Part shown: in pieces, positions 7,457 through 11,903 of the stretch
Numbering within the stretch: the stretch's first letter is position 1
Layout of the letters: the number at the start of each line of letters is the position of its first letter
Assembly (NCBI RefSeq): GCF_041248615.1
Contig: NZ_CP158426.1
DNA: 64,000 nucleotides
Reading direction: 5' to 3' (one strand)
DNA from: Escherichia coli
Lineage (GTDB): Bacteria; Pseudomonadota; Gammaproteobacteria; Enterobacterales; Enterobacteriaceae
Position numbers and translations under genes: made by a program
Notes under the pieces: model-generated
Databases searched by the model: none
Seen by the model: only the letters and a program-made list of their open reading frames with translations
Told to the model about the DNA's origin: nothing

Positions 7457-7510
7457 TCCTTGCGGCCGGGCGTGGAGAGCGCTTTCTCGCCTCCGGGGGA
7501 AATACCCATA
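7433..7510 (+). pseudogene. Remnant of a MocA/MobA-like molybdenum-cofactor nucleotidyltransferase gene (first ~25 codons only)
   Basis: MPAPVVLILAAGRGERF motif typical of MobA-like NTP transferases, overlapping paoD 3' end; similarity is lost after ~25 residues. Confidence 0.4.
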
Positions 7511-7635
7511 AATTAAGAGAAAAATCTGCAGTAGCCGTTTTAGAAAATCACCTAAATCGTTTAAAAGAGCACCCAACCCATAGTGGGCGCTCATCGCCTT
7601 GTGTAACTTATTCAGCAACGCGCGCCCTCGCCGGA

Positions 7636-8829
7636 CTAAAGCGCACCGGCCTTCTGGCGTGCGGTAACAAAGGTCAGTACGCCAGCGCAAAGGAGCAGCA
7701 CGCTACTCATAGCAAACGTGCTCTGCCAGCCAAGGCGGTCAAATACGATGCCTCCTGCTGTTGATCCAAGGGCGATGGAGAGCTGAATCACCGCGACCAT
7801 GAGCCCGCCTCCGGCTTCGGCGTTGTCAGGCAACGTACGCGCAATCCATGTCTACCATCCGGTTGGCGCGGCGGTGGCCAGCATGCCCCAGAGTCCTAAC
7901 AGCAGCGAGACCGTCCAGACGTGATGCCCGGTCAGCATCAGACCGATAGCAATGACGGCCATCAGTCCGGGTATGGCCATCAGCGTGGGGTAGAATTTTC
8001 TGTTGAGAAATGCCGAAACAACCAGCGTGCCAATAAAACCGGCCACGCCGATAATCAGCAAAATCAACGACAAGCCTAAGGAATTAACCCGTGTCACCGA
8101 CTCCAGAAACGGGCGCACATAGGTGAATAGTGCAAACTGCCCCATGAAAAACAGGCAGCAGGCTATCATGCCGACCACAACCATGCGGCGGCTAAATAAG
8201 CGGAATACCGCGCCACATGAAGTGTGGCTTTTATTCGCATCCATGCTTGGCAGGCTGATGCACTGCCAGATAAAGGCGACAACCGCGATGGGCACCAGGC
8301 ACAAGAAAGCGCCTCGCCATCCGACCGTAGCCCCCAGATAGCTTCCCAGCGGTGCGGCCACGACCGTCGCCAGCGCATTACCGGCGTTGAAAATTGCCAG
8401 CGCACGCGTGACCTGATGCTGCGGCACCAGACGAATCGCCGTTGCCGCTGACATCGACCAGAATCCGCCAATAGCCACACCAATCATCGCACGACCGACC
8501 ATATACATCAGATAACTGGAAGCCAGCGCAATAATAAGCCCCGATACGGCCATCAGAACCGTCATCCCCAGCAGCAGGAACTTACGATTCATCTTTCCAG
8601 CTAGCGTTGAAAGCGTCAGGCTGGTCAGAACCGCCAGCGCGCCGGAGATAGCAATCCCCTGCCCTGCCAGCCCCTCCGTCACGCCTAAATCGCGGGTAAT
8701 CGGCGTGAGCAGGCTGACGGGCATAAATTCAGAAGCAATCAGCACAAACACGCACAGGGTCATGGCAAAAATACCGCCCCAGTATGCGCGCTGATGATGA
8801 GGTGATAGTGTTTGGCTTAGTGTCGACAT
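7636..8829 (-). pseudogene. MFS transporter interrupted by an in-frame amber codon (TAG at 7852-7854)
   Basis: 325-aa ORF and 65-aa ORF are in the same frame, separated only by TAG; together ~395 aa, the size of a 12-TM MFS protein. Confidence 0.6.
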
Positions 8830-8904
8830 AGTGAAATTTCACAAAGATCAGGATAAAAGCCACCAGCCTATGGCCGGTGGCTTTGCATCAATTCAGGAGA
8901 GGTT

Positions 8905-10041
8905 TTATTTCAGTTTGGTCTGGAAAAATTGTTCGAACTTCGCGAAAGGTATTTTTCCGGCCACGTTATCGTACAGGTCCACGTGATTTGCCCCTGGTAC
9001 CACCACCAGCTCTTTGTCTTTACTGCCAACCGCCTTGTAAGCATCTTCAGCAAAATAGCGTGAATGCGCTTTCTCACCGGTCACAATCAGCGTCGGGATG
9101 GTGATTTCACTGGCGTAGCTCAACAGCGGCATATTCATAAATGACAGCGGCATCGTTGCCGTCCACGCCCCGGTAGAGTTAACGGAACGTTCGTGGAAGC
9201 CGCGCGGCATGCGATAGTAGTCAAAGAACTCTTTCAGTACCGGATGAGGATTTGCCGGCAGCGTTTCTGGCAGAATGCGCTCGCCCGCACTGACCTTGCC
9301 GTTGCTGTCGACATTAATATCATGACCACCGTGAGCGAACGTTCCGCTCTTCGCATCCTTCCAGCGCTGTTCATTCAGATATTGCAGAACAGCACGACGG
9401 TCGGCGGTAGAATAACGGTCTTTGCCATCCCCCACACCATGACCCATCGCCCGGCTCATGTCATACATCACGCTGGTAGCTACCGCTTTAACGCGGGTAT
9501 CCATCGCTACGTCGTTCAGCGCCATGCCGCCCCAGCCACAAATACCGAGCAGCCCGATACGGTTGCGATCTACCTCTTTTTGCAGCCCTAAGAAATCCAC
9601 CGCCGCGCTGAAATCTTCAGTGTTGATATCCGGTGAGGCGACGTTTCGCGGATAGCCGCCGCTTTCCCCGGTGTAAGAAGGATCGAACGCCAGGGTAACA
9701 AACCCTCGTTCCGCCAGCGTCTGCGCATACAAGCCGCTGGATTGCTCTTTCACCGCGCCAAATGGCCCACTGACCGCAATCGCCGCCAGCTTGCGATCGC
9801 CACGGTCTTTAGGCAGGTAAAGATCGCCCACTAAGGTGATGCCATATCGGTTCGGGAACGAGACTTTACGGTGATCGACTTTCTGGCTCTCGGCGAACGT
9901 TTTATCCCATTTATCTGTCATGGACACAGGGGCATTAGGATTGGTTGAATCAGCATAACTCATTGTCGTGACTCCACTTAATGATGCGAAAAGCAGCATG
10001 GTCGGCATCGCGGTTTTTAGCGTGCGGGTGAAGGCTTTCAT
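8905..10041 (-). CDS. Secreted alpha/beta-hydrolase (dienelactone-hydrolase-like)
   Basis: Signal peptide after MKAFTRTLK; alpha/beta hydrolase fold signature; start chosen at internal Met. Confidence 0.65.
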   Translation of the reverse strand: MKAFTRTLKTAMPTMLLFASLSGVTTMSYADSTNPNAPVSMTDKWDKTFAESQKVDHRKVSFPNRYGITLVGDLYLPKDRGDRKLAAIAVSGPFGAVKEQSSGLYAQTLAERGFVTLAFDPSYTGESGGYPRNVASPDINTEDFSAAVDFLGLQKEVDRNRIGLLGICGWGGMALNDVAMDTRVKAVATSVMYDMSRAMGHGVGDGKDRYSTADRRAVLQYLNEQRWKDAKSGTFAHGGHDINVDSNGKVSAGERILPETLPANPHPVLKEFFDYYRMPRGFHERSVNSTGAWTATMPLSFMNMPLLSYASEITIPTLIVTGEKAHSRYFAEDAYKAVGSKDKELVVVPGANHVDLYDNVAGKIPFAKFEQFFQTKLK

Positions 10042-10227
10042 AAAAATCCCCATAAAAAACAACAGAGAGATACAGGTTTCCGACGGACAACGCTGCGGTG
10101 CTTTACTTTGATGGGGTCATTATAGTGAGCAGAATTAGTGCTGATTAGGGGGCGATTAATGCTAAGATTAATACCATATTGTTATAAATTAATGCGGAGA
10201 TTGCCGGCATGAAGGGGGGATGTTTCA

Positions 10228-11112
10228 ATGGCGAAAAGGGAGAACTACAACGAGCTGTACCTGTTTATGCAGGTGGTGCGGGAAGGCAGCTTTACCGCAG
10301 CGGCTCAGCGGCTGGGTCTTGCTCAGTCAGGAGTCAGCCGTTCTGTTCGCGAGCTTGAAGAAAGGCTGGGCGTCCAGCTGCTAGTGCGCACCACGCGTAA
10401 ACTGTCGCTGACACAAGCAGGCGAGCAGCTCTACCAGAAGACGGCATCTGGATTTGAAATGTTAGATCTTGGGCTTGCCACGCTGGCGCACTATCGAGAG
10501 ACGCCCTCCGGCACGGTGCGTATCAATGCCAGCCAGCACGCGATTGATAAATGCCTGCTGCCAAAGCTGGCGGTATTTAAACAGAGATATCCTGATATCC
10601 GGCTTGAACTGATAAATGAGAGCCGGTTCGTCGATATCATCGAGGAAAGATTCGATGCAGGTGTCCGCCTGGGGCCTGAAGTCGGCCAGGGTATGGTCGC
10701 GGTACGCATCACGCCCGATATGGAGATGGCAATTGTGGGGACTCCGGAACATTTTCGTCGCTATGGTTTTCCGCAAACCCCGGCGGATTTAAAGGCGCAT
10801 CCCTGTATCGCCTATCAGTTTGCCGACGGCAGCGTATACCAGTGGGAACTCAATCAGGATGATAAAAAAATAACTCATCGCCCTGAAGGGCAATGGGCCT
10901 TATCCGACAGCTATATGGAAGCAGAAGCAGCCCGGCTGGGCCTCGGATTGGCCTATGTTCCTGTTGAACTGGTCGCGGATGATTTAGAACACGGTAAGCT
11001 TATCAGGGTGTTGCAGCGTTACAGCCTGCGAATGGAGGGATTGTTTCTCTATTACCCTCATCGCAACGTCTCCCCCGCCCTGCGGATGGTCATTGATACA
11101 TTGAAAATCTGA
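10228..11112 (+). CDS. LysR-family transcriptional regulator
   Basis: 294 aa; N-terminal HTH (FTAAAQRLGLAQSGVSRSVRELE); divergent from hydrolase gene. Confidence 0.8.
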   Translation: MAKRENYNELYLFMQVVREGSFTAAAQRLGLAQSGVSRSVRELEERLGVQLLVRTTRKLSLTQAGEQLYQKTASGFEMLDLGLATLAHYRETPSGTVRINASQHAIDKCLLPKLAVFKQRYPDIRLELINESRFVDIIEERFDAGVRLGPEVGQGMVAVRITPDMEMAIVGTPEHFRRYGFPQTPADLKAHPCIAYQFADGSVYQWELNQDDKKITHRPEGQWALSDSYMEAEAARLGLGLAYVPVELVADDLEHGKLIRVLQRYSLRMEGLFLYYPHRNVSPALRMVIDTLKI

Positions 11113-11687
11113 ACGTTAACAACGACCGACTCTTTACTGTGCAATATTGTGTCAGGTAGTCCCTCTGCGTTCAATTCCAGGGTCTGCTTTGAGCGAGAAA
11201 GAGGGGACTATCCAGCAATGGAGATCACCCAAAAGAAAAAACCACCTGGCTCCCTCGACAACCTTCATCCGGGCATTGAGCCTCAATCAACATTTTTATA
11301 TCTGTCAGGTTACTTCATTATGAAAACTGATCATCATCGTTGTTTTTGTTGCAATAGTAGAATACGCGTATTTATTCCTCCATCTCTATTAATAACGGCA
11401 ATAAACTGTTCACTTCACTGATATTTAAAATATGTATCCTTTTCAAGCTGTTCAGCGGCGTAAGAAAAAGTATTAATTATGAATTCGACGATTTAACCAT
11501 TTCAGTCTGATTGGTAATCATCTATGATTAATGCTGGTCTATTGATTACGCCAGCATTAACCGCTTAGGGATGTATTCTTCCTGTCCATATAGCCCTCGA
11601 AAAAGAGAGAAAATAAAACTGTGTCCAATATTAATTTACCACTCCAGACCGAAGCATCGGTGGGATTAGCAGAATGATCTGCGTCTG

Positions 11688-11903
11688 ATGTTGAGGCTGG
11701 CTCTTGCCGGCGCAGGCATAACAATTGCCACTCAGGAAACTTTCAGGCCATATATTGAAAGCGGTAAGCTTGTATCGCTGCTTGATGACTTTCTTCCACA
11801 ATTTCCGGGCTTCTATCTGTATTTCCCACAGCGTCGCAATATTGCACCAAAGCTCCGCGCCCTGATTGACCACGTCAAGGAATGGCGGCAGCAATTGGCT
11901 TAA
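11688..11903 (+). pseudogene. yagP: C-terminal fragment of a second LysR-type regulator (yagP-like remnant)
   Basis: 71-aa ORF homologous to LysR C-terminal effector domain but lacking the HTH and N-terminal half. Confidence 0.5.

Follow-up and report, generated by a model that had tools for sequence, protein, structure and literature searches.

A reduced, partly eroded allele of O-island 9 beside thrW in Escherichia coli, and the mobile ovrB-hydrolase-transporter cassette that it retains

O-island 9 (OI-9) of Escherichia coli O157:H7 is a 6,132-bp island with the EDL933 locus tags z0342-z0348, which encode, in this order, a LysR-type regulator (z0342), an oxidoreductase of the short-chain dehydrogenase/reductase (SDR) type (z0343), two hypothetical proteins (z0344 and z0345), a second LysR-type regulator (z0346, or ovrB), a hydrolase (z0347) and a transporter of the major facilitator superfamily (MFS) (z0348) (PMC6768210). 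OvrB is reported to bind the LEE1 promoter, within the locus of enterocyte effacement (LEE), and to promote both adherence and the colonisation of mice; deletion of the OI-9 genes other than ovrB has no effect on either property (PMC6768210). The distribution of the island among clades has been taken to mean that it was acquired twice by pathogenic clades (PMC6768210). Here we describe an islet at positions 7460-11903 of a 64,000-nt stretch of E. coli DNA (contig NZ_CP158426.1), hereafter the window, whose coordinates are used throughout. Judged by its gene content and order, this islet, lying between paoD and thrW, is a reduced and partly eroded allele of OI-9.

How closely does the islet correspond to the O157:H7 island? 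From the paoD side, open reading frame (ORF) listing, a tRNA search and Pfam scans give the order z0348, z0347, ovrB, an AT-rich gap and a fragment of z0342. The backbone ends on the left at 7456, with paoC and paoD (the latter at 6500-7456 on the plus strand, from its ORF and from the RefSeq annotation of a locus in isolate NRZ14408 that is 99.9% identical to the window), and the right flank comprises thrW, then proA and proB. OI-9 sits at the same place, towards paoD from thrW, flanked by yagQ/paoD and by the thrW-proximal region, and has the same gene order once an internal deletion is allowed for; orthologues of ovrB, z0347 and z0348 are all present in the window. It is this match to z0342-z0348 (PMC6768210), together with 96.9% DNA identity to the O157-type long form of the region in strain 138, that leads us to equate the two. 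The window does not, however, hold the full OI-9 set of seven ORFs over ~6.1 kb, since z0343, z0344 and the 5' part of z0342 are missing, leaving ~75 codons of the last, and z0348 is interrupted by a strain-specific amber codon. The islet is thus largely described already, as a named island with a published regulator, and is variable in E. coli. The original prediction, made from the sequence alone, had recognised the individual genes; to this can now be added the identity of the islet as the named OI-9 and that of its LysR protein as OvrB, a virulence regulator already in the literature. The feature is unremarkable in itself, being a named accessory island in decay next to a familiar tRNA hotspot, and its modest value lies in the polarity of loss versus gain, in a likely local OvrB regulon and in the chemistry of the PA2218/YcjY hydrolase family to which z0347 belongs.

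The suggestion that this is a variable region next to a tRNA integration hotspot is borne out by a megablast comparison of positions 7000-12400 with 5,426 complete E. coli genomes, among which the interval is far from invariant: at least 80% of it is present in 909 genomes, and the MFS region in 908. In the long form (strain 138, locus L002), paoD is followed by intact MFS, hydrolase and LysR genes, a ykgR-like fragment, a 92-residue hypothetical protein, the SDR and a 299-residue LysR protein. Relative to this arrangement, the window and NRZ14408 have a deletion of ~2.05 kb that took out z0344, z0343 and the 5' two-thirds of z0342 (long-form positions 7701-9748 are absent in blastn, with a 9-bp overlap that places the junction at 11673-11681). 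What survives of z0342, at 11673/11688-11903 on the plus strand, is indeed the C-terminal fragment of a second LysR gene that had been predicted, consisting of the last ~75 residues of a 299-residue regulator that is intact in other strains and matching positions 142-207 of the 209 in the LysR_substrate profile. The same deletion junction is found in 179 genomes and the deleted segment itself in 388, while roughly 2,700 genomes have only a K-12-type stump of z0342. The 2-kb deletion is a lineage marker, and the long form is a minority state.

Genomes of the K-12 type lack long-form positions 3512-9640, that is 6,129 bp as against the 6,132 bp published for OI-9, and retain the last 113 codons of z0342 at a distance of 55 bp from paoD. 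This stump is the K-12 pseudogene yagP, a LysR fragment lying between paoD and intF/CP4-6. The window resembles K-12 in the identity of the gene, in its truncation from the 5' side and in its placement with respect to the att repeat on the thrW side; it differs in that K-12 keeps 113 codons and nothing else of OI-9, whereas the window keeps ~75 codons and the whole of ovrB-z0347-z0348. Strain DETEC-C31 has an independent deletion of 1,041 bp across the 5' ends of the SDR and LysR genes, and in strain 19A14 the region gives way, at window position 11554, to an AbiE/reverse-transcriptase island. Among E. coli genomes there are at least four deletion or replacement alleles, and three independent deletions each end inside z0342. 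Another independent event at the second LysR-SDR unit is seen in at least one O157:H7 genome, that of strain F8798, where IS1203 is inserted in the z0342/z0343 region. The 92-residue hypothetical protein at the z0344 position (long-form 7814-8092), deleted in the window, shows a weak BhsA/YdgH-like match; because Salmonella plasmid cassettes also have a YdgH/BhsA/McbA-like gene, a small periplasmic stress protein may have been part of the original unit.

The three-gene core that survives, z0348, z0347 and ovrB, forms a cassette of 3.6 kb that is mobile well beyond E. coli. Blastn places the segment common to other genera at 7619-11197, with 91.6% DNA identity over exactly these positions in Kluyvera genomosp. 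1 and 86.4% over 7702-11143 in Serratia marcescens UMH3. Homologues of the hydrolase occur across Enterobacterales at 85-97% identity, nearly all of them annotated at 378 residues, and the divergent arrangement of LysR gene and hydrolase-MFS pair is kept in Klebsiella, Yersinia, Dickeya, Kluyvera, Serratia and others, at unrelated loci in the first three and at a different locus in Kluyvera as well; the Yersinia and Dickeya cassettes have an additional cyclophilin-like gene. The cassette is also found on plasmids of Klebsiella, Salmonella, Kosakonia, Pantoea and Leclercia. A paralogous copy (77% DNA and 87% protein identity) occupies another site in E. coli, where it is cargo of a lambdoid prophage inserted near yjjG-rimI-holD and sits at the end that bears the integrase (loci L009/L010, 4946-9814). 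In S. marcescens UMH3 (locus L012, 6928-10662) the cassette lies at thrW-proA, 181 bp from the 3' end of thrW and inverted relative to E. coli, with five neighbouring ORFs that have no Pfam match, so that its association with thrW has arisen in two genera. Synonymous divergence (dS) from Serratia is 0.51-0.66 for the cassette, compared with 1.51 for the adjacent proA, and horizontal transfer is therefore indicated. Ratios of nonsynonymous to synonymous divergence (dN/dS) are 0.04 for the hydrolase, 0.04 for the LysR gene and 0.15 for the MFS gene, values that point to strong purifying selection on the cassette.

The regulator gene, ovrB, occupies 10228-11112 on the plus strand and encodes 294 residues, 98.3% identical to the O157-type allele. 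Both domains expected of a LysR-family protein score above their cut-offs (HTH_1, PF00126, 83 bits; LysR_substrate, PF03466, 121 bits), in agreement with its prediction as a divergent LysR regulator. The regulatory region that it shares with z0347, at 10042-10227, contains a block of ~75 bp that is kept in an alignment of ten genera. Read on the minus strand, this block has TTATAACAATATGRTATTAAT with a T-N11-A motif, T(10184)-N11-A(10172), a TTAGCA...TGCTAA dyad over a weak -35, and an invariant TATAAT -10 hexamer at 10124-10119. A generic sigma-70 scan did not pick up the z0347 promoter because of its poor -35, and the promoter was recognised instead by phylogenetic footprinting. The arrangement closely recalls classical divergent LysR operons, which have a T-N11-A site near -65 and an activation site near -35: here too the genes diverge, the centre of the box lies ~66 bp 5' of the putative transcription start of z0347, and a second dyad overlies the poor -35 in front of a perfect -10 hexamer. 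Unlike in those operons, however, the sole demonstrated target of OvrB is the distant LEE1 promoter, its binding at the local box being predicted. Since ovrB belongs to a conserved, mobile unit of three genes that has a conserved LysR-box promoter of its own, the ancestral role of OvrB was probably the local control, by activation, of z0347-z0348. Synteny across genera, the conserved T-N11-A box and -10 hexamer and dN/dS of ~0.04 likewise lend support to the earlier suggestion that hydrolase and regulator form a substrate-responsive unit. The ~70-nt 5' leader of z0347 (10042-10112, minus strand; …AAAGCACCGCAGCGTTGTCCGTCGGAAACCTGTATC…) is conserved in most Enterobacterales copies and is absent or divergent in those of E. 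cloacae and Dickeya; an Rfam E-value scan of 7000-12600 matched thrW alone, and the leader fits no known RNA family.

The hydrolase gene (8905-10041, minus strand) is intact and encodes a protein of 378 residues with the alpha/beta-hydrolase fold. Its nearest solved relatives, to which it is close in both sequence and structure, are PA2218 of Pseudomonas aeruginosa (PDB 2HDW, E 2.9e-125) and E. coli YcjY (PDB 5XB6, E 1.6e-43), each a crystal structure of an uncharacterised alpha/beta hydrolase. Literature searches on PA2218, YcjY and yagP found no functional data on the hydrolase; the uncharacterised PA2218/YcjY family is widespread and has these two crystal structures. An AlphaFold2 (AF2) model from an alignment of 53 diverse homologues reached a predicted local distance difference test (pLDDT) score of 84.5, whereas a 12-sequence alignment gave 41.8 and was unusable. 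The nucleophile elbow in this model, G-I-C168-G-W-G, has Cys168 after the strand 157-167 and before the helix 170-178, a strand-turn-helix arrangement, and Cys168 and His353 are invariant in the 53 homologues (53-97% identity), in keeping with the PA2218/YcjY pattern of a cysteine nucleophile behind strand beta5 and a catalytic histidine behind the last strand. Dienelactone hydrolases (DLH, PF01738) are Cys-His-Asp enzymes of the same fold, but z0347 falls below their Pfam cut-off, with 18.9 bits against 21 and a match to residues 146-195 only. A role as an N-acyl-homoserine lactone (AHL) lactonase of the UilS type was considered and rejected, the NCBIfam score of 64.6 bits against a cut-off of 400 being generic alpha/beta-hydrolase similarity. 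Fold and cysteine nucleophile together would suggest an ester, a lactone or a thioester as the class of substrate.

That the islet has an alpha/beta-hydrolase gene was correctly foreseen; that its product is secreted stands as a prediction. A putative Sec signal peptide of 30 codons covers 9952-10041 on the minus strand (MKAFTRTLKTAMPTMLLFASLSGVTTMSYA, followed by DS), and its signal-peptide pattern is kept across 12 genera in spite of substitutions and an in-frame indel. A GGGGA Shine-Dalgarno sequence stands 5 nt 5' of the ATG at 10041, and residues 1-34 are disordered in the AF2 model, with pLDDT below 50. We therefore predict export of the protein via Sec. The start given for E. coli by the RefSeq annotation pipeline (PGAP) is an internal Met at 9963, which yields 352 residues and no signal peptide, whereas most other genera are annotated at 378 residues; this start, called Met34, is probably a misannotation that makes the protein too short. 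At 80 loci from many phyla, homologues of the hydrolase have as neighbours a divergent LysR gene (30 loci), MFS genes (14), carboxymuconolactone decarboxylase (CMD)/AhpD-like genes (14), cyclophilin-like genes (14) and left-handed beta-helix (LbH) acetyltransferase genes (12), with AraC regulators, flavin mononucleotide (FMN) reductases, aldo-keto reductases and SDRs also recurring. The neighbourhood of the family in distant taxa, as read from these genes, is of a detoxification and redox type rather than that of a catabolic pathway.

The transporter gene at 7636-8829 on the minus strand is, as had been noticed, a pseudogene interrupted by a nonsense codon. Its 397-codon frame has one in-frame amber codon at 7852-7854, a single TGG to TAG change (W326*) by which the frame differs from the intact O157-type allele and which cuts off the last two predicted transmembrane helices. 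The intact allele has an MFS_1 domain and hydrophobic peaks that fit 12 helices; the window allele falls short of this number. NRZ14408 has the same lesion, its MFS gene being marked 'internal stop' by RefSeq, and it is the only one of the 908 genomes with the MFS region in which an exact 57-mer holding the amber codon is found. A match with one mismatch, which we read as the intact TGG codon, occurs in 899 of these 908 carriers. The mutation is thus very recent and strain-specific. The nearest NCBIfam matches of the protein are NepI, the SotB-like sugar efflux family and Cmx/CmrA, all of them below cut-off; for the best, NepI, the score is 294 bits against 584, which indicates similarity only and not membership of a named efflux equivalog.

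What, then, was the islet, and what does it do now? The reading that we consider reasonably probable is that OI-9 was present in an early ancestor of E. coli and has been lost piecemeal beside thrW, and that a mobile cassette for envelope detoxification, under the control of OvrB, survives here with its transporter just broken. On this reading OvrB, as a cytoplasmic regulator, would bind the T-N11-A box ~65 bp upstream of the divergent promoter and, on sensing a small-molecule co-inducer, would bring about transcription of z0347-z0348. The product of z0348 would act as a DHA1-like pump that expels the compound to the periplasm, where the exported Cys-His hydrolase would cleave it, and the cassette as a whole would likely serve as an inducible detoxification unit of the envelope for an ester or lactone. 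In the present strain the transporter has been newly inactivated by a single amber codon and the second unit, the z0342 regulator with the z0343 SDR, has been deleted, and a prophage formerly at thrW would have been removed to leave a scar of 120 bp. Of all this, the islet's identity, anatomy, variability, mobility and selective constraint are demonstrated, whereas hydrolase export, control of the operon by OvrB, transport direction and chemistry are inferred. Several observations weigh against parts of this scheme. The direction of MFS transport is not readable from the sequence, all NCBIfam matches being far under their family cut-offs, and the internal start without a signal peptide that RefSeq assigns to the hydrolase also has a plausible Shine-Dalgarno sequence. 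The position usually held by an Asp after strand beta7 is an invariant Ala (Ala325) in the alignment of the hydrolase family, and the candidate acid Glu323 is only ~90% conserved and is Ser in YcjY, other candidates being Asp181, Asp355 and Asp358. In the sole experimental study of the island, deletion of z0347 or z0348 in O157 has no effect on adherence or LEE expression, and the role assigned to OvrB is at LEE1, the distant promoter that this study covered (PMC6768210).

The history of the region could also be read the other way round, with the islet as a recently acquired, thrW-targeted island inserted into a K-12-like backbone and with two acquisitions as the OI-9 study infers from clade distribution (PMC6768210). 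The islet does adjoin a known hotspot, its cassette is mobile between genera and abuts thrW in Serratia as well, and representatives of E. albertii, E. fergusonii and other named Escherichia are not among the best 80 loci of a scan of species representatives. Yet neither an integrase ORF nor bounding repeats were found within 7460-11903, and the sole repeats of att type (11962-12138) stand between the islet and thrW; the further independent deletion alleles also tell against recent arrival. The truncated z0342 at the exact K-12-type junction is explained only by deletion from an ancestor that had OI-9. Because that junction keeps the truncated gene, we conclude that K-12-like genomes descend from an OI-9-bearing ancestor and that the history of the region in E. 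coli is dominated by loss and not by insertion; the stump argues against the two published gains (PMC6768210), and we regard a recent insertion as quite improbable. The patchy distribution of OI-9 then indicates repeated loss, which bears on the treatment of the island as a pathogen-specific acquisition. With regard to function, a periplasmic enzyme, an inner-membrane transporter and a LysR activator would fit uptake as well as efflux, and the cassette could be a catabolic or scavenging unit in which an ester or lactone nutrient is cleaved by the hydrolase to a usable product, the transporter takes this product up and OvrB responds to it by inducing the operon. The invariant Arg132, Arg183, Arg197, Arg226 and Arg280 of the hydrolase suggest an anionic, possibly carboxylated substrate, in keeping with this idea. 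In Enterobacterales, however, the cassette is not accompanied by catabolic genes downstream, the nearest named relatives of the transporter are efflux pumps, and the neighbours in distant taxa are those of redox and detoxification functions; a nutritional role thus seems rather unlikely.

It might be argued instead that the surviving genes are irrelevant passengers, OvrB being only a virulence regulator recruited in LEE-positive strains and the rest neutral DNA. The null phenotypes of the z0347 and z0348 deletions in O157 (PMC6768210), the loss of the region from most E. coli and the broken MFS gene of this strain are all compatible with such a view. It is difficult to reconcile with strong purifying selection on all three genes across genera (dN/dS 0.04-0.15), with a conserved promoter architecture, with the preponderance of carriers whose match at the amber site is read as intact TGG, or with the repeated spread of the cassette on plasmids and a prophage, and we think it very improbable. 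A more speculative reading, for which we would claim little likelihood, is that the cassette is a self-contained mobile sensor-effector for a gut-derived ester or lactone, in which periplasmic hydrolase and pump set the intracellular level of the OvrB co-inducer and, in LEE-positive strains, the signal has been wired into virulence through the binding of OvrB to LEE1. The PA2218/YcjY family is widespread in gut Bacteroidota, Campylobacterota and Gastranaerophilales, and if the proposal were true its substrate would be a metabolite, made by the host or the microbiota, by which the attachment of enterohaemorrhagic E. coli is controlled.

The AT-rich gap between ovrB and the z0342 fragment had been estimated at about 570 bp and measures 575 bp (11113-11687), is non-coding, and has a GC fraction of 0.397 against 0.533 for the window. 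Blastn finds in it a frameshifted ykgR-like remnant at 11324-11440, 90.6% identical to K-12 ykgR and downstream DNA and annotated by RefSeq as 'YkgR, incomplete', followed at 11440-11589 by a stretch matching, at 74%, the ykgL/ykgO region of K-12, whose own place in that genome is ~15 kb distant. The segment 11324-11589 is, on this comparison, decayed paralogous DNA from an old partial duplication of ykgR and the ykgL/ykgO region; since the gap is composed of such pieces, the idea of a mobile element or att site there was rejected. Foreign origin of the islet on grounds of composition was likewise rejected, the GC fraction of the cassette being 0.540 against that of the window and AT-richness being confined to the gap.

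Beyond the islet, thrW encodes a tRNA-Thr(CGU) at 12151-12226 on the minus strand (ARAGORN; Rfam tRNA) and is an integration target, listed with the tRNA genes of E. coli that are hit most often (PMC7545054). Between it and the islet, at 11962-12138, are two 57-nt att-flank repeats (11962-12018 and 12082-12138) that are 89% identical and 120 bp apart. The spacer (12023-12081) consists of the final ~60 nt of an integrase gene and falls inside annotated integrase genes in 863 genomes; repeats and spacer share homology with attP ('type CP4-6') and the 3' end of int in the thrW phages HK542, mEp213, mEp043 and SfX. No instance of the repeat-spacer-repeat junction turned up in the 5,426 complete E. 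coli genomes; in NRZ14408 the repeat is present once. The peptide encoded by the repeats had no BLASTP match to one lambdoid integrase fragment, and Tandem Repeats Finder gave nothing relevant. The segment looks like a 120-bp scar of an imprecisely deleted thrW prophage. The thrW site of other strains holds prophages, P4-like satellites and defence islands. That of strain 138 (locus L093, 1790-31001) has a tandem array in which a P4-like satellite with an ABC-three-component defence system is followed by a Mu-like/tailed prophage, and still other strains have Avs2 or AbiE/reverse-transcriptase islands at thrW.

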